From assembly GCA_951813565.1 (NCBI GenBank), contig OX638351.1, positions 672,001 to 736,000 on the forward strand: DNA of 64,000 nt. Reading direction: 5' to 3'. The DNA is from an uncultured Poribacteria bacterium (GTDB lineage: Bacteria; Poribacteria; WGA-4E; WGA-3G). The translations under genes were made by a program, and so were the position numbers. Below, piece after piece: positions 2,664-57,889 of the stretch (positions are counted from its first letter, which is position 1; the number at the start of each line of letters is the position of its first letter). Below the pieces are notes generated by a model, which did not search any database, was not told the DNA's origin, and was given only the letters and a program-made list of their open reading frames with translations.

Positions 2664-2768
2664 GACAAATGCCATACGGGGAATGCCAAAAGGCATTCAT
2701 ACCCGGTGAATGACTAAATGTCATTCATACCGTTGATTTCTTGATTTGGCGCATTTGGCGTTGATTTG
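2664..2768 (+). mobile_element. Nested composite of hairpin-GTTGATTTG micro-elements
   Basis: Interrupts the REP CCGCCCC^GCTGGGGCT (intact copy at ~2607); three nested hairpin units. Confidence 0.75.
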
Positions 2769-3449
2769 GCTGGGGCTGCTCTTATTTGCCATGAGGATCT
2801 TTTTCTGCGAGTTACGTCCCCGTGAAAAACTCAGCGAAAAATGAGAAATACTTGAAAACAGATCATGAAATAGTAGTTCGTCCGTCGGGTAGAGCTTGCG
2901 AAACCCGACAATATAAAGGTTTCAAGGCAAACTGGGCGGGTTTCACAAGGAAATCGTAGGAACACATCAAGCAGGTTGTGATAATAGTATTTCAGTCCCA
3001 ACATGTCGGGTTTCGCATTCGCTCTACCCATAGGTGTAAACTTAAGGATATATCCTCTTGTGGGAGTGAATCAACGCCAAATGCACTTTTTGGCATTTGG
3101 CGGGTTTTCAACCCCGCAGCATGCCATACGCGCATGCTGCGTTGATTTGGATTTTCTGCTTGAATCTCGTTTAATCGGGCGGACAAGGTTTCCCTCCCAC
3201 AAGAGATAATTTAGCAATTTTGTTCTTAAATTGACACTCGCTGAAGAGCGTTTGACATATTCAGAATATACCTAACAAGAAATTACCGAATTAAAAAATT
3301 AATCTTCATTTAGTTTGTGCCTTATGAGACGCAAACTAAAAGTTTGCGCTACAGAAGTGTCCCATTAATTATAGGTTTTACTATAGTTTTAATTCGTGTT
3401 TTTTCAAAGTAGGTACGGTTGAAAAACGCACCCGAATAAGATTGGTAAT

Positions 3450-17400: not shown

Positions 17401-17907
17401 CAGGTAATCCTGGATTCGGCAAGAGAACCGGAGCCCACCGGATTTTGTCAGCGTTAACAATGGGGTGGCAGTGGTGTTGAGGAGTGCTTCAATACAAGTA
17501 GCAACAGCTTCCGGGGCATCACAGATCGCCTTGTATGTAAATTCAAGGTCGTGCCATTGCGCACCATCACGTTCAGATGGGATGCCGGTATATATCTGAA
17601 TTCCCCATGAGGTATACCACTGTTTTATTCGCCAGTCTTGCGTGCCTTGCCGTTTTAAGAATCGTTCACCGCCAAAATCTTGTGGGCCTTTGTCGTTTTC
17701 AGGCGCGTGGCCTATTGGCATAAAGGAGATTTCTGCATTCTCAAGCGCATCAAGTATCATAGGATTGCTGCGCGCACAATGCACCTTAATGTGATAGGGA
17801 AAACTCTTATACAACGCAGGTGTTATCACTGTTTTGCGTTGCCGAAGTATTTCTCTTTCTACATGTCGTTTGTGGCAAAGTTGAAAAATATCTTGTAATA
17901 CATTCAT
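14437..17907 (-). CDS. Large divergent Prim-Pol / SF2-helicase-like protein with Cys cluster and C-terminal HTH/winged helix
   Basis: HDLE, TKSGGLRF, LEVRGDKGY (Prim-Pol-like); C..CPQCPxxxxC; IIDE; C-terminal LKRLLDAGEIVRVRRGVY; start at MNVLQ behind an AAGAGG RBS. Confidence 0.55.
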   Translation of the reverse strand: MNVLQDIFQLCHKRHVEREILRQRKTVITPALYKSFPYHIKVHCARSNPMILDALENAEISFMPIGHAPENDKGPQDFGGERFLKRQGTQDWRIKQWYTSWGIQIYTGIPSERDGAQWHDLEFTYKAICDAPEAVATCIEALLNTTATPLLTLTKSGGLRFSCRIQDYLHPNIDAAKFFIYKHKPTDENPSHRDIYLEVRGDKGYSRWDLRYQVLSGNLLNPPVITKEVLFAPINNLRAALHEPESSQQKFLKDVPKSNIATLPSLGSNNLDLAKETFLKHGFSYDRETDGFHYWTRNDVYVSLWEDYNIVWVRAATPNTEFPTHAVPITDIWEDTGISAPPVDTGLPVSKTLLAIREGHLSPLAIKRLPSKFQKQQTAPKEYKNAKERSAQIQQILKRGTRILALTSSEVGILTNTEAETYLLNNRATCLNIASHSLAEAAEQRYQSKNAPVIAHWRTVTYRWEEVKDIPADVRMAEPFRHGNVCEDAERFRAFEEKGGNAPKSTCPQCPVWTACQERGYLSQPLTLQRVKAQVSSIKQLFLDPRRTHLAQQTLGGTNHPERTCIIDEFETSTPNLFLKCGFSKKVMEEWSVNWQGKTLGNFAAALINAIGTQSNPYSNPIRPVRAVVEAFRQHKDEIIQQMCYINVRGTVVPHKNVDPETGTELARYAIDFHSGATAYIPLDVNAEDKLKAMGLPFLPHSMVVGALRRFLSTNSVDSEIAPTEDIAIPMQMAEAIALGIFDIQTVEKINLLPTVCRHPDWTYWHQLERFFAHYTRDVDAPMWWDGEYLEFRMPPKLYPHVKRLLLISISLSEQQLHRVFPNEQMDVIRVEPTTWAPDNKVFQVRTSSESPHAILNYNLNSNVMELSKIGESYFIRIRTEIERDPSIKHAIVTNSAIIKKLADLAAKQNVCFVRKFKALHEIGEEIEAAQVLWIVGTPFFSQQLILGEAQTLFGNDEKPLNYKGKIWTGHYEDERIQGIHDQKVEGLLTQIVGHVGLNRNSGKTVMLLNNIELSDITDRPETLLFDWIDFEIAGGLHKLEETIRTRERFEAERDNLTAESRREEVERVLGCSSRQANRMLQKLRGVNNIPRVPFREQILFLLSSGREKTTSSLVAALDSSPQAVGNELKRLLDAGEIVRVRRGVYTLPKRQQVDS

Positions 17908-18033
17908 GATGTCCCTCTTTCCATACCCAAACCCGGTAGGTGCATTTTCATGAGGATTAAAAATATATTTCGGTAATTTTCTAACCATCTACATCTTGTT
18001 TTATGTTTTCTTGTGTGAGGTTCATTATCTTGT

Positions 18034-18167
18034 TGTCTGAATCACGGAAGGCGCTGAGGACACTGCGTTCACGGAAGTCCTTTCTATTCATTTATGTTTC
18101 TTCTTAGCAGAAATAGTAATGGAACGGAAATGCTTCTGCGTCTTCCGCGCCTTCCGTGATTCAGACA
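18034..18167. repeat. Foldback element with 21-bp perfect inverted repeats (TGTCTGAA family)
   Basis: TGTCTGAATCACGGAAGGCGC / GCGCCTTCCGTGATTCAGACA; related family at 38153-38263 and 58444-58730. Confidence 0.75.
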
Positions 18168-18616
18168 GAAAAGGGATCAGATTACCGAATTAATAACTTA
18201 ATCTTCATGAAAACGCGCTTACCTTTGGGTAATAAATCCAAATCAACGCTGAATGCGCGTTTAGGCATTCAGCGGGCTTACAAAACCCTCCCATAAGAGG
18301 TAATTCAGTAATTATGTGCTTAAATTGACAGTTATGGGTAGAGTGCAAGCAAAACCTACCAAATCAACGCTGAATACGAGTTCGGATTCCGGGCCAAACC
18401 ATATTCAGTGCTAACAGGGATATTTAACCATTTCTCACATGTACTTGTTACGTTGATTTGGCGTTGATTACGCGCAGCATTGCCCAAACCCGATAGGTGC
18501 GGTTAGAAACAGCGCCTACCAAGGTAGAACAGCATCGGCGCGGGGAAACCCTGAAACTCCCCTACAATGTTAAATAAGACGTGATGCCAAATTAACACCG
18601 ATACCCTTAATATGTA

Positions 18617-18773
18617 CAGGACTTACGCAATTTTCATGATTTTTGCAATAATTACGGTTAAAATAGCGTAATTTTTAGCAGAGTTCTGAACTATGGCGCT
18701 TTTACAAAACGCCAAATCAACGGTCCGAATGCCATTTAGGCATTCCCCGCCTACCGCGTGTGCGTAAGCCCTG
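18617..18773. mobile_element. MITE with CAGGACTTACGCA termini and 5-bp TSD
   Basis: TIR 12/13 match; ATGTA on both flanks; related copy at ~2106-2219. Confidence 0.75.
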
Positions 18774-19107
18774 ATGTAATAAATTGTTGGGTTTCCGGTT
18801 GTTCCAACTAACTTATACCATTTCTAAATTATAACTTCCCATTTACAAAAAACGCGTTTAATGTGAATGTCGGACGCACATTCACCAAGCGCAATTCATT
18901 GCGCCTCGGACATTCAACATAAGATAAGTTTCAAAATCTCATAGAATCTTCGTAATGGTATTTTATTTATTAGAATTGGTATTATAGACTATTGATCGGT
19001 ACGCTTAGGAAAACATACCTACCGTTGTCTTATATCTTAATATGTTAACATATACCTTAATTTTTATCAAGCTTTTTACATTATAAATGGTATGTGCATA
19101 ATTATTC

Positions 19108-19452
19108 GAGGGGTGTGCATAAATAATTCCGATGTTAAATATGCGCTTAAAGGTAGTCCGCACACGCCGTGGGTTTCCATCCACAAGTTCAAAGAGGCGC
19201 AGCATGCCACACGGGGAATGCCATAAGGCATTCGGACCCGGTGAATGACTAAAGACGAATGCGCTTGGTAGAATACGCTTTTGGTATTCTACATGATTCG
19301 CCATGATTCATACCGTTGATTTCTTGATTTGGCGCATGCTGCGTTGATTTGGCAATAAATTGCGCGACTACAAACGCATTGCTATAAATCAAGCGGCACC
19401 TGGCGTCTGTCCTTGTCTGTGTTGATACGCCAAATATTTATGCACACCCCTC
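19108..19452. mobile_element. MITE with 18-bp TIRs and 8-bp TSD
   Basis: GAGGGGTGTGCATAAATA / TATTTATGCACACCCCTC; AATTATTC duplicated at 19100-19107 and 19453-19460. Confidence 0.85.
19199..19351 (+). mobile_element. Multi-level nested hairpin-TGATT composite
   Basis: Inserted in AAGAGGC^GCAATAAATTGCGCGACTAC; near-identical inverted copy at 25927-26088 and a variant at 28436-28588. Confidence 0.8.
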
Positions 19453-19526
19453 AATTATTCAGTGTGAATCCAAATCCGTAGTTTACTAACCATGGTAGGC
19501 GCGTTTTGTCCACGCGCCGTTAGGTA

Positions 19527-20017
19527 ATACCAATTCTATAAATGAATTTCCCTTCGAATTAGAATATACTATACTTTGGACAATTTTAGCTGTTTTCGTG
19601 AGGTTGGGTTAGAGAAAAACATATAGTTTTCATATTGGACACCTGTCGCCCCGCTGGGGCTGAAGCGGGTTGTTTACCGCGTTTCTATACACCTGTCGCC
19701 CCGCTGGGGCTGCCCAAAAGGTATTTTTGGACGAGTTCTTTCAGCAAGCAAAATCGCAGAAAATATAAATAATATAAGATGACACCTTAGCCCCAGCGGG
19801 GCGACAGGTATATAGAAGAAGGTAATTGCCGCTGTCTAAAGCCCCCGCGGGGCGACAGGTGTCCAATATTTTGCTTTGGACACCTAACAGTTTCTCAGCA
19901 AGTCCTCGAACAATATGTAAATTGTCCAAACTATAGTAGAATATAAGAGGTGCAATGAATTGCGCGACTACGAACCAGCTATTTCTTAAAGGGTATGTTA
20001 TTTTATAGAAATGGTAT
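19527..20017. mobile_element. MITE-like element (ATACCAATTCTA...TAGAAATGGTAT) hosting a second MITE
   Basis: Same termini at ~18816-18982, ~38279-38422 and ~58498-58603, each enclosing the GCGCAATGAATTGCGC palindrome. Confidence 0.65.
19569..19936. mobile_element. IS4-like MITE with 18-bp TIRs and 9-bp TSD
   Basis: CTATACTTTGGACAATTT / AAATTGTCCAAACTATAG (17/18); TAGAATATA duplicated; four internal CACCTGTCGCCCCGCTGGGGCT-type repeats; left end recurs at ~2515. Confidence 0.85.
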
Positions 20018-20250
20018 AATCTTTAGCACAGATATAGGCGCGCTTACATGAAGATTAAAAAATGAATTCGGTAATATTGCAGAGAAACTCGGTGCGATTA
20101 GATGAAGTTTAAGAAAATAAACCGGTAATTTGGCGAGGTTAGGAAAACTCGCCAGCAGAGGTGGACACCTGCCTTGTGCGGACGGAAAAATACCGAAAGA
20201 ATAAATTAATCTTCATGAAATCGCACCTACCGGGTTTTAGCTGAATAACT

Positions 20251-20330
20251 TGAAATTTTCGCAAAAAATGGAGAATTTTCGCAAAAAATGGAGAATTTTC
20301 GCAAAAAATGGAGAATTTTCGCAAAAAATG
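20251..20330. repeat. Tandem repeat, 4 x 20 bp (GAGAATTTTCGCAAAAAATG)
   Basis: Read directly; first copy degenerate in its first bases; no spacers. Confidence 0.95.
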
Positions 20331-20352
20331 TGTGTTTTTTTGTAATTTTTAC

Positions 20353-20381
20353 TTGACTTATAACGTATATTATTATACAAT
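20353..20381 (+). promoter_or_regulatory. sigma70-type promoter
   Basis: TTGACT-17 bp-TACAAT, followed by a 15-bp perfect inverted repeat at 20387-20423. Confidence 0.6.
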
Positions 20382-20980
20382 ATGTCATATAATTCATTTT
20401 AAGACATATAAAATGAATTATATTAATAAAAATTAGAAACTTTATTTGATTTAAATTTAGTTTTATGTTAGAATTAATGTCGGTTCAATATGAGACTTCA
20501 AGTGCGGAATAGTGATCCAAACCTGTATACACATATAAAATAGGTGTTGGTAAGTACACACAACATAGACAGACCGATATATTCCACTACGAAGTCCCAT
20601 TCTTATTTATTAATTTTAAGACAATAAAAATTTAATTTGATATTATATAAGTTTTAACTTATAATTAATATATTGGAAGATGCAGATGTTGTTTTCATCT
20701 GCACCGGACAATGTAGGTTTAAATATCTTGTGGATTGAAGCAAAGAAGTCCCATTCGTAAAAGTCAATGTTTCACGCAAGATGCAAGGAAAACAATTGGT
20801 AACCACAATATAGGTTAAATGGATAGATGTGGTGTCAATTGAGATAGGTAAACAGGTAACCCTGTTTTTTACACAATATTAATACACAATATTAATATTT
20901 AGATTGGAAGATTAGATTAACAGGATTTAATTCCCTGAATCTTAACTTGAATTTAATATTTCTAAAAGGAGAAATAAGTA

Positions 20981-25926: not shown

Positions 25927-26088
25927 CCAAATCAACGCAGCATGCGCCAAATCAAGAAATCAAGAAATCAACGGTATGAATCATGGCGAATCATGTAGAA
26001 TACCAAAAGCGTATTCTACCAAGCGCATTCGTCTTTAGTCATTCACCGGGTCCGAATGCCTTATGGCATTCCCCGTGTGGCATGCTGC
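25927..26088 (-). mobile_element. Nested hairpin-TGATT composite (inverted copy of 19199-19351)
   Basis: Near-identical reverse complement with one extra AAATCAAG. Confidence 0.8.
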
Positions 26089-26238
26089 GCCTCTTATATT
26101 TTCTAATTGAATGTAGGGCGGGGTCTCTGTGCCCCGCCACTGCTGATGTATCTAAACGTGGCATGCTGCGCCTCTTATATTTTCTAATTGAATGTAGGGC
26201 GGGGTCTCTGTGCCCCGCCACTGCTGATGTACCTAAAC
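26077..26238. repeat. 81-bp tandem duplication
   Basis: 26077-26157 and 26158-26238 differ at one base. Confidence 0.9.
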
Positions 26239-28103: not shown

Positions 28104-28701
28104 TATTTCCATTCAATGGGTACACGTCCATAGAATGGTAAAAGGGATCGGGAATCTCGATTCATAATCTATGGTGAGGTATAAAAAAGTAGGCACTCGC
28201 TGTAGGCGCGATTTGTAAACGTGCTGATCACAGCGTATAGTTAATTGTAAATCTAACGTGTTGTGCTAAATACTTATTTGTAAAATATTGTTTCACAATT
28301 ACATGACGTTTTGTTAGTTTTTATCATTAGTTGATTCCTTCTTCAGTCCCGACAAATGCCATAAGCACATTTGACGTTGATTTGGTAGGGACGATATGTT
28401 TATAGAAAAACGTTGAACACCCTATCTTTAGCCCCGCCAAATGCCATACGGGGAATGCCAAAAGGCATTCATACCCGGTGAATGACTAAAGACGAATGCG
28501 CTTGGTAGAATACGCTTTTGGTATTCTACATGATTCGCCATGATTCATACCGTTGATTTCTTGATTTGGCGCATTTGGCGTTGATTTGGTAGGGACGATA
28601 TGTGTATAACATGAGTTCAATATGTGTGAAAAGAATACAAACAAATAGTTAACTAACACAAGTCGTAAATCTACTATAATTCTTTTGGAGTTTTAACAGA
28701 T

Positions 28702-45338: not shown

Positions 45339-47017
45339 CTTACTATTACCCATAAGTCGAAATTCTTACTATTGATCATAAATTCGACATAAAGTGCAGA
45401 CATCTATTTTCTTGATTTACATTCACCTGTGCTGTCAAGATAAGTGTATTTTCGCTTGGGTCATTGGGTCATAATATACTTGCATATCAAGGACATTTGT
45501 GTTATGTTCAATAGATATTATTACCAACACAAGTAACACTTATGGATCTGATACATTGGAGTGAATAATGATGTCTACAAACAAGAAAGAGTTATCTACA
45601 TCTTGGAGTATTGAAGAGTTTACGGGTCTTGATTTGGGAGATGCCCGTCTAAATAAAAGGTTGCTCAGCGTTGCAGATGCGTTGGCGGCACATCCTACCG
45701 CAACCATCAACGCTGCGTGTGGCGATTGGGCATCGGTGAAGGGTGCCTATCGTTTATTTGATAATGAAAAGGTTTCTTCAGAGAAGATATTGGCACCTCA
45801 CTTTAGACAGACGATTGCGCGGATGTGTGCGTATCAGCGTGTGTTTGCTATACAAGATACAACCTATCTGGATTACACCGATCACCCGTCAACAGAAGGT
45901 TTAGGTCCGATTGGTGCCTCGTCTCATCACCATTATGGTTTTGTCAAACACACGACACTCATCGTGAGTGGGTCGGGGCTCCCGCTTGGGTGTTTGACAG
46001 ATAAAGTGTGGGTTCGGGATGCGCCGACACAAGAAAAAAAACGGAAATCCAGACCGCTGGTAGAAAAAGAGAGCTACAAGTGGATTGAAGCAGTGTCGGC
46101 AATAAAATCCGAAGCCCCAGAAGGTGTTGAGGTGATTTGCATTTGTGATCGTGAAGCTGATATTTATGAGTTTTTCGTTGAAGCACAAGAGATGCCTTTT
46201 GTAATGCGTGCTGCGCAAGATCGTGTGGTTGATAATGATGTTGGTAGATTGCGTGCTTTAGCAGAAAGTCTACCGGTTGCTGGTGAGTTTAGCATACAAG
46301 TTGCAGCGCGTGGTGCCCAACCTGCCCGAGAAGCAACTCTGAGCGTTAGTTTCACAAAAACGACGCTTCTCCCACCGCATCGTTCGCAAGCATCACGCTC
46401 CCAAGAGCTGCCTGCTGTGGAAATATATCTCGTATGGGTGATAGAGACGAACCCACCCGATGGCACAACACCTGTGGAATGGCTGCTCCTTACAAATGTG
46501 AAAGTCACAGATTTCTCAGATGCGATTGAACGGGTAGACTGGTATACGCAACGCTGGCACATTGAAGTCTATTTCAAAATCCTCAAATCAGGAACGAAAG
46601 TTGAGGAAGTCCGCTTCCAAACCCAAGAGAGACTCCTACGCTTTATTGCCCTGCTGAGCGTGATTGCTTGGCGTCTTTATTGGTTGACAATCATCAATCG
46701 GCAGGCACCGGATACGGACTGCACACATATATTGACTGAAGTTGAGTGGAAAGCACTTTACTGTATAACACATAAGACGCACATTTTACCGAAAAAACTG
46801 CCAACTGTGTCTGAAGTCGTTGTTTGGATCGCCAAACTGGGTGGCTTTTTAGGACGAAAGTCCGATGGTAAACCTGGAGTGACCGTTATTTGGCGAGGAT
46901 GGCAAAGGCTTAGTGATATTTCTGACACCTTTGCTCTTTTTCACCAATACACACAAAACAATATCGGTCAGAACCTTATTGATGGACATGTTCCATAAAC
47001 TTATGGGTAATAGTAAG
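45339..47017 (+). mobile_element. Complete IS4-family (IS50/Tn5-like) insertion sequence, 1679 bp
   Basis: Perfect 19-bp TIR CTTACTATTACCCATAAGT; 9-bp TSD CCTTGACAA at 45330-45338 and 47018-47026. Confidence 0.96.
45568..46998 (+). CDS. IS4 family transposase
   Basis: LGDARL..R, IQDTT, DREADIYE, Y..RW.IE.YFKILKSG, LGGFL.RK.DG.PG. Confidence 0.96.
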   Translation: MMSTNKKELSTSWSIEEFTGLDLGDARLNKRLLSVADALAAHPTATINAACGDWASVKGAYRLFDNEKVSSEKILAPHFRQTIARMCAYQRVFAIQDTTYLDYTDHPSTEGLGPIGASSHHHYGFVKHTTLIVSGSGLPLGCLTDKVWVRDAPTQEKKRKSRPLVEKESYKWIEAVSAIKSEAPEGVEVICICDREADIYEFFVEAQEMPFVMRAAQDRVVDNDVGRLRALAESLPVAGEFSIQVAARGAQPAREATLSVSFTKTTLLPPHRSQASRSQELPAVEIYLVWVIETNPPDGTTPVEWLLLTNVKVTDFSDAIERVDWYTQRWHIEVYFKILKSGTKVEEVRFQTQERLLRFIALLSVIAWRLYWLTIINRQAPDTDCTHILTEVEWKALYCITHKTHILPKKLPTVSEVVVWIAKLGGFLGRKSDGKPGVTVIWRGWQRLSDISDTFALFHQYTQNNIGQNLIDGHVP

Positions 47018-51958: not shown

Positions 51959-52281
51959 GCTCCGTAAGTCTATTTGATTTCAACTTTTTAGATTTTTGGA
52001 AGAAAGTAGCGAGCTGGAGGTCGCTCCTACAGTAAGTGTTTGGAATTACTTGAACACTCTGCGCCAGCGAGGTTAGGAAACCTCCAAATCAAGAAATCAA
52101 CGCTACAAATGCCATTTAGGCATTTGGCGGGTATGAATGCCATTTAGGCATTCCCCGCCTACCGGTGTGAATGTAAGAGGCGCAATGAATTGCGCGACTA
52201 CAAACGCACATAAGGATTTGGGGAGTCGCGAGCTGGAGCTCGCTTCTACAGTAAGAGTTTGGAACTTGCGAGGAGATAAAG

Positions 52282-57338: not shown

Positions 57339-57889
57339 AAATACTTTCTTGCCTTTGTAGTGCCTCGTGAGCTCCCAATGGTAAGTCCATAGATGAGGGA
57401 CTGTGTTTCCTGTTCTTCTGCGTGGAGGATTGATGTTGCAGCCCCAAATATTACATATTACTTCGATTTCTCACATTTACCTCCGTTGTTTTGATATAAC
57501 CTATCTTTAGAGAGATTGTTCATTGGTAGGTATTGTTTAAGTAATACCACTTCTATATGATAATAGGACATTATTTCGTAGGTCGGGTAGAAGCGTTAGC
57601 AAAACCCGACTTTTTATGGTGTCTGCCCGTTGCATGGCACGTCCTGCACAGTGGCGGGGCACCAAATCAAGAAATCAACGGTATGAATAACATTTAGTTA
57701 TTCACCGGGTATGAATGCCTTATGGCATTCCCCGGGACCCCGCCCTACAGTGGAAAACGCCGCGTAATCATTGCAAATTGAACCTATGTAACCAAATATT
57801 TACACACCCGTGACAATTTGTCAATTAGAAATGATATGATGATATGGGAAAGTAACTAACCGGAGAATTGAAGGCTACACTAACAAGTC

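Follow-up and report, generated by a model that had tools for sequence, protein, structure and literature searches.

Nested hairpin micro-elements and their MITE carrier in a Poribacteria genome

REP-like repeats are dense in the intergenic DNA of genome G000, the closed, single-contig, 5.43-Mb genome of a Poribacteria sponge symbiont. Named homologues of its ketol-acid reductoisomerase, with 94-96% identity, belong to Candidatus Poribacteria. In a 64,000-nucleotide stretch of this genome (the window, C1:672001-736000), one such repeat holds at 19199-19351 a series of small elements that appear to lie one inside another. This raises the question of how such a stack was built, what carries it, and whether its depth can be read as a dated sequence of insertions.

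The original prediction for this locus was a nesting about five deep, and this was borne out by an exact parse. An iterative parser, which collapses the innermost hairpin units first, resolved 19199-19351 into exactly five units (A 34 + B 35 + C 36 + D 24 + E 24 = 153). The units, of 24-36 bases each, are hairpin-forming and fall into two classes described below; square brackets denote nesting.

19192..19371, minus strand: host REP palindrome in the MITE, tag at 19368-19371, family D9
19199..19351, plus strand: unit A, class 1, net 34 nt; left arm 19199-19207, right arm 19334-19342, 7-base tail 19343-19349, two variable bases 19350-19351
19213..19331, plus strand: unit B, class 1, net 35 nt, within the loop of A at offset 14
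19240..19323, plus strand: unit C with its cargo, class 1, net 36 nt, at the foot of the B hairpin
19254..19305, plus strand: unit D, class 2, a reversed-loop hairpin of 25 nt followed by ATG, net +24
19268..19295, plus strand: unit E, class 2, 28 nt, net +24, within the loop of D

The stack interrupts the host REP after 19198 and causes no duplication there; where C sits, the first base of the B tail (19239) is replaced, and D takes the place of four bases of the loop and arm of C. The innermost units had been described as ending in ATGATT; ATG is indeed their own end, but the next three bases belong to the host arm and vary with it. In the predicted fold of the whole stack (z -3.8), A pairs and the arm of B can pair with that of C, and five neat hairpins were not seen in it.

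Simpler and equally deep forms are present elsewhere in the window.

2664..2768, plus strand: A[B[C]], three deep, from the parse
3116..3149, plus strand: simple unit A, from the parse
18713..18748, minus strand: simple unit B, 36 nt, from the parse
25928..26088, minus strand: five-deep stack, 161 nt, with one extra 8-base tail repeat
28436..28588, plus strand: five-deep stack, 153 nt, with another A shell, B variant and host repeat
52085..52156, minus strand: B with a different unit in the tail slot and unchanged junction bases, from the parse
57663..57733, minus strand: B[C] straight in a host REP, from the parse

Thus the simple A, the B[C] and the A[B[C]] forms expected at 3116, 57663 and 2664 were all found, and the reverse simple B expected at 18712 is present but starts at 18713. 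Stacks with two further units in C had been placed at 19199, 25927 and 28436; all three are five deep, the second starting at 25928, where the extra tail repeat halted the parser at depth 4. This second stack has the same shell and B variant as that at 19199 but lies outside the MITE. The left arm of its A shell, together with the adjoining REP, is included in an 81-bp tandem duplication at 26077-26238. C[D[E]] is identical at 19240-19323 and 28477-28560, while the A shells and host repeats differ, and this 84-nt block is common to different shells and species. The earlier claim of one inner composite in different shells and REPs therefore holds for C[D[E]] and not for B, which differs in loop and bulge between 19199 and 28436.

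A full parse of the genome yielded 1027 units, with 691, 181, 75, 54, 25 and 1 at depths 1 to 6. These counts are lower bounds, as the parser is conservative and left out 136 of 791 arm-plus-tail matches, mostly degenerate or chimeric shells; when viewed with 75 bases of flank, none of the 136 unparsed arms continues into an obvious long insert. Flanking sequence is repeated at 513 of the 564 unit clusters, and among the 51 with unique flanks five lie inside long open frames, four of which look like parser false positives. That the nesting is an assembly artefact, or that the hairpins occur by chance, can hardly be right. Repeats do break short-read contigs, and none of the listed contigs from four of eight sequencing runs bridges the stack or reveals two cargo states at one locus within the species. 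However, the genome is closed as a single contig, identical junctions recur in assemblies of up to 23 other species, and joints that skip D and E and carry the canonical replaced bases were found in three independent runs. Contigs of the four runs cross 18250-18841 with 0-1 differences, and the stack joints seen in the runs are paralogues (depth 200-450 vs 16-55). As for chance, a first-pass scan returned 708 units in the genome as compared to 2 in the reversed genome and 3 and 2 in two order-4 Markov simulations. The nesting is confirmed as real, well-resolved and beyond chance.

Class 1 (871 units, 33-36 nt) consists of a bulged 9-bp stem, a fixed 7-base tail and two variable bases. Comparison with empty host-repeat alleles indicates that it inserts without duplication, at times with one or two host bases replaced. 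The base to its left is C at 237 of 284 distinct junctions, the two variable bases combine with the next host base as TG before G (136), CA before C (36), TA before T (18) and TC before T (10), and the commonest target step is C to G. Class 2 (156 parsed) is a 25-nt hairpin followed by ATG, 28 nt in all, its loop being reversed in 112 of 117 scored units; it adds 24 bases net with the loss of about four host bases, and about 19 further units with a variant host arm were missed by the parse. A parsed parent unit surrounds 133 of the 156, and of the 23 parentless ones, 22 were judged by eye to lie in units that are degenerate or escaped the parse, the last being a false positive inside a gene. 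The slots used for nesting are few, with parent offsets 14 (loop) and 27 (foot of the long hairpin) accounting for most nested pairs. Among 107 distinct class-1 hairpins, stem pairs 3, 4, 5 and 8, scored at positions free of the selection criteria, covary beyond 500 column shuffles that ignore relatedness; pair 3 is Watson-Crick in 87 of 107, against a shuffle maximum of 60. Free stem positions covary in both classes, and the stem is kept by compensatory change. By-hand fits of IS608-type guide-and-target rules and of a 1-bp duplication model covered part of the sites at most, as did a match of the variable bases to the unit's own arms. In the congener loci L042, L104 and L142, reversed-loop hairpins plus three bases lie inside an ordinary REP and seem, by eye, to replace four host bases (net +24), and class 2 may thus also enter hosts other than units.

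Growth by self-insertion had been proposed together with the result that would overturn it, a long ancestral form reduced by random internal deletions. This was put to the test, and insertion stood. In the short forms the tail base and the arm bases are canonical, whereas the long forms lack them, and scars predicted by clean loss of inner units numbered 0 as compared to 244, 25 and 27 canonical short forms (a fourth scar pattern gave 10 matches, all unrelated sequence). Among the 124 shells examined for one A type, the length matches the ladder exactly in 116 and is another whole-unit sum in two; three carry a tail remnant and three are unresolved. Since the short forms possess canonical bases that the long forms lack, and since the predicted scars are absent, our results support the view that the short forms are ancestral and that growth proceeds by insertion of units into units. 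Genuine deletion products do exist: an extra 8-base tail remnant marks four simple B units (vs 104 unscarred) and two of 38 MITE copies, and one break inside C was found. These are rare and recognisable, however, deletion could not restore the bases held by the short forms, and the MITE is empty in congeners. A long ancestral form is therefore very improbable, and for the bulk of the short forms it is refuted. Separately, some 37-base sequences in the genome consist of two B copies fused head-on as a perfect palindrome, and the MITE left ends at 201867 and 4848316 belong to MITE halves joined to an inverted composite, which suggests deletions or inversions via units.

The stack at 19199 lies within a larger element, which the original prediction had overlooked along with the separate junction rule of D and E. 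Its features are as follows.

19100..19107, plus strand: target duplication, left copy, 8 bp
19108..19452, no strand assigned: MITE with the stack, 345 bp (192-bp backbone and 153-bp cargo)
19108..19125, plus strand: left terminal inverted repeat, 18 bp
19153..19184, plus strand: second REP in the MITE, degenerate, from sequence
19435..19452, minus strand: right terminal inverted repeat, 18 bp
19453..19460, plus strand: target duplication, right copy, 8 bp

At the orthologous site of congener G006, 19108-19452 is absent and the flanking 8 bases are in single copy. The MITE ends are common to elements of 1135-1138 bp that encode a 333-aa DDE transposase (PF01609), whose score against NCBIfam IS982, the best of six DDE families, is 41.9 bits with a cut-off of 130. 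The partner copies L220-L222 include one intact 333-aa frame, one frameshifted and one interrupted. Thus, the MITE is a non-autonomous relative of a resident DDE insertion sequence of about 1.14 kb. The genome contains 48 MITE left ends, 38 of them with a right end at most 520 bases away. Target duplications of these 38 copies match at 8/8 bases in 28 and at 7/8 in five, while 5000 random flank pairs gave 8/8 in one and 7/8 in 14. Their cargo is none in 3, A in 1, A[B] in 14, 105 nt in 2 (one holding C and one another unit), with D added in 4 and E in 9, and other in 5, which gives a ladder of lengths of about 190 (empty), 228, 261, 297, 321 and 345 bp. In one copy the A slot is occupied by another A variant. 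All 9 congener loci that were read contain an empty MITE (185-190 bp), and a pattern search for the junction between the MITE REP and A found it in 0 of 39 congeners and in 36 copies in this genome. The degenerate second REP carries a unit of its own in one copy elsewhere (1986923). The D[E] block has about 39 copies, nine of them in the MITE, and these nine are therefore MITE copies rather than separate builds.

The carrier is an ordinary IS-derived MITE, a kind that in bacteria includes RUP, NEMIS and Nezha, as listed in PMC3733652. Like those, it has terminal inverted repeats, an 8-bp duplication, no coding capacity and an autonomous partner; unlike those, 19108-19452 holds two REPs and a variable nested cargo with a six-step ladder, and its partner transposase falls under the IS982 cut-off. 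Composites had been thought to remain mobile or to convert one another, and our results bear out both: the MITE carries the stack to new sites, and arms of two A variants are mixed in 7 of 107 scored shells (24 unscored), besides the A variant swapped in one MITE copy.

The further claim, that nesting gives an ordered record of insertions, did not hold. A genome-wide parse with a nesting grammar, proposed as a check for consistent order, revealed that types nest in cycles: B lies in A, C in B and D in C, but B also lies in D and A-types in B, and B and C are each found within their own type. Cargo is scattered over shell and MITE lineages. Among 224 B units, the B variant is associated with the left flank (z 18.4 over all; z 8.4 in the 85 filled copies) and hardly with cargo (z 2.9 over all; z 1.3 and p about 0.10 in filled copies), and among the filled copies flank and cargo remain somewhat linked (z 4.5); all these values overstate, as copies are not independent. 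That B is tied to flank and hardly to cargo argues against B travelling with the cargo, in which case the reverse would be expected. In 28 MITE copies (the 38 minus the empty, the A-only, three truncated or scarred and three divergent ones), 12 of 14 distinct backbone variants, including a three-base variant, occur in all four combinations with presence of C. However, many of these variants are C>T, perhaps by recurrent mutation, and by eye they also conflict mutually, so that the finding of all four combinations is not specific to the cargo.

Nor does the breadth of the junctions follow depth. Among 39 congeners, the A-to-B junction was found in 23, long unit to D in 18, D to E in 10 and B to C in 6, counts that come from exact patterns of unequal length in partly fragmented genomes and may thus be too low, and that may mirror transfer or sequence drift instead of age. 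A scar at the tail slot was found in 36 of the 39. Several congeners contain the long unit with D[E] but no B-to-C step, in varied hosts, and G006 holds A[B[C[D]]]. Our preferred reading of the stack is therefore that two widespread halves met at the tail slot of B, that the MITE was loaded last, and that copies still exchange the content of the slot.

The contrary reading, a stepwise growth from the outside in (A, B, C, D, E) in which every state was then amplified and depth would record the order of insertion, has some points in its favour, as every rung is present even inside one MITE family, the empty MITE is ancestral, A to B is the widest junction (23/39), and flank and cargo are partly linked. 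Against it, the inner junctions are wider (18/39 and 10/39) than B to C (6/39), congeners have D[E] inside long units with no C, at least six distinct lineages of flank plus B repeat the series, bare C is present in only one of 38 MITE copies, and the types form cycles. We therefore regard stepwise growth as unlikely. Since types nest in cycles, cargo is unlinked from its B shell and from MITE variants, and breadth does not follow depth, an ordered record is not supported; depth is not a dated insertion record and is not age.

The two-halves reading can be extended to an account with three layers, which as a whole we consider probable. In the first layer, rare events would insert a unit at one of a few fixed slots in a REP or in another unit; for class 1 this could be a single-strand cut-and-join beside a C, most likely by one of the resident HUH/Y1 RAYTs that act on the host REPs, and class 2 looks like a microhomology-guided copy-in with the loss of about four bases. 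In the second layer, ready-made A[B] and long-unit[D[E]] would have been joined at the tail slot of B, both blocks being older and wider spread than their union, and the slot keeps changing its content, presumably via homology-directed conversion or repeated block insertion. In the third layer, the REP that held A lay in a MITE and, as the anatomy of the copies shows, the DDE transposase of the partner IS copied each state to new sites with 8-bp duplications, which would explain why a tidy length ladder survives. The stack itself would be selfish or neutral DNA. Within this account, insertion at fixed slots, MITE carriage, decoupling of cargo and chimeras were observed. The flank-cargo link that remains (z 4.5 among filled copies) speaks against the account.

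That a borrowed RAYT makes the junctions is our leading guess, though a tentative one, template switching being a somewhat weaker candidate beside some other protein. The guess follows from the ability of TnpA-REP to cut and join single strands, from the presence of resident RAYTs and from the repeated flanks of the unit clusters. The sections of PMC3333891 that deal with TnpA-REP describe cutting at CT, up to more than 400 nt off the bound REP, and recombination of fragments, and PMC8266576 reports for one member that it can cleave CA too, and CC once its tag is altered. The left base of our junctions is usually C, yet the commonest step, C to G, is not among the CT, CA and CC named there. 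The genome has ten Y1 matches, five IS605-type and five RAYT-like, and among these and 49 loci of relatives no gene is flanked by units as cognate repeats. A unit motif is present at 7 of the 59 Y1 loci, two of which were viewed in context, and in the Y1 flanks that were viewed (10 own, 14 congener) the units lie inside ordinary REPs. The Poribacteria loci L040-L059 and L006-L010 encode a wide variety of RAYTs, each type being paired with a REP family of its own. Thus, the lack of a REP tag on the units, the lack of a cognate Y1 gene and the C-to-G step all weigh against the RAYT guess. No clear unit adjoins either of two reverse transcriptase loci: L223 1312-2709, on the minus strand, encodes a 465-aa enzyme with a long insert, which we take to be group II intron-like, and L224 1066-2601, on the plus strand, a 511-aa one, presumably retron/Abi-like, beside a PIN-like gene.

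Alternatively, no dedicated enzyme would be involved, and junctions would arise with replication, by template switching or short single-strand (DNA or RNA) annealing between hairpins, and spread through conversion and hitch-hiking. Class-2 junctions, which drop about four bases and reuse the host arm, are consistent with this, as are the class-1 sites with one or two swapped bases, the common mosaic arms, mirrored ends and palindromic fusions, and the fact that no gene was found linked to units. However, the 284 distinct junctions, in hosts unrelated to one another, have in common a left boundary, a C before it and a fixed tail. This suggests that a protein recognises hairpin and tail, and stem covariation points to selection on structure. 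Overall, such an enzyme-free origin seems doubtful to us.

The arm-plus-tail pattern of the unit, searched as a pattern, has 452 occurrences in this genome, is present in 24 of 24 congeners at 4-358 copies each, and has 0-2 in each of 16 genomes of other families. A GTDB scan placed 77 of 80 loci in records titled Poribacteria, among the matches listed; L146 and L177, titled 'uncultured bacterium', contain typical B-type units in the same host repeats. Six matches in viral contigs to one 18-base pattern lack a hairpin and were discarded as chance. An Rfam search over 17900-20500 gave two weak matches, both far under threshold, and no description of these elements was found in the main texts of the open-access papers searched. 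The elements probably constitute a genus-wide family of non-coding hairpin micro-elements, a reading that we hold jointly with the three-layer account.

Other repeats were noticed along the way. A stretch of about 110 bases at 18356-18470, also at about 380-480 of L084, contains two unit tails in inverted orientation, with a longer hairpin and a spacer between them; it is also present, degenerate, at the orthologous G006 site and could represent an ancient doublet or else a longer relative of the units. At 20234-20350 a 20-base unit is repeated in tandem in about five copies, partly alignable to G006 and other congeners, and 45568-46998 (plus strand) encodes an IS4/Tn5-type transposase of 476 aa (PF14706, PF02281).

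As to known systems, the closest kind, going by description, appears to be the SDRs of Nostoc. SDR1-8, as reportedly set out by Elhai et al. in 2008, are 21-27 nt long and confined to Nostocaceae, their hairpin is said to be kept by compensatory changes, and some of their families are said to be nested in their own copies. We know of no mover of these SDRs. Like them, the Poribacteria units insert in other repeats, nest in their own copies and, in class 1, have compensatory stem changes (judged against shuffles that ignore relatedness). Unlike them, they occur in another phylum, with 33-36 nt in class 1 and 28 nt (net 24) in class 2 rather than 21-27; they have a fixed tail and two variable bases, class 2 replaces host bases and lies almost only in other units, and a MITE carries them. 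Nostoc SDRs, SDR5 among them, are described in part of PMC5861425 as very small dispersed units that insert in other repeats.

With REPs, BIMEs and REPINs and their TnpA-REP (PMC3333891, PMC8266576, PMC3116915, PMC6006769, PMC3733652), the units share extragenic hairpins in hundreds of copies, mosaic composites and a bulged stem, and diversification followed by amplification has been proposed for those repeats. Some REPs sit within other palindromes according to PMC3733652, and known kinds are also covered by PMC2884548. The hosts of the Poribacteria units are REPs, and the genome has RAYTs. In contrast to REPs and REPINs, however, the units lack a four-base 5' tag, their left flank being host and their fixed part the 7-base tail, they are not the repeats that flank RAYT genes, and they are single hairpins inside REP stems, REP loops and each other. 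An IS200/IS605 non-autonomous derivative was rejected on account of the single hairpin and variable target, as compared to two subterminal hairpins and a fixed target of 4-5 bases, and the left ends of resident IS605 copies look unrelated to units. An IS110/IS1111 derivative was rejected as well, as the targets are many and unrelated and the recombinase PF02371 was not found in the genome (95% complete; control detected in 6 of 14). Nests of eukaryotic LTR elements serve as a dating record, the inner element being younger than its immediate host. The same would apply to an inner Poribacteria unit at the founding event, but here blocks move and convert, and the order of events cannot be told from how deep the nesting at a locus is.

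Loaded cassettes such as the 84-nt C[D[E]] are 93-99% identical between genomes whose genes are about 80-88% alike. A possible, if speculative, reading is one of layered micro-parasites with two chemistries, in which a single-strand enzyme would put 33-36-nt units in REPs, the units of 24 nt net would home almost only there, and mobile cassettes would home to a fixed slot and cross co-occurring species. If so, they would rank with the smallest known hyperparasites that look autonomous. The work on SDRs and REPs left the question of how DNA of 20-40 bases spreads, and this locus provides a testable system for it, with fixed slots, two junction classes and known empty alleles, and with one MITE family in whose near-identical backbones six cargo states are frozen. 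In repeats of this sort, the depth of nesting is unusable as a clock.
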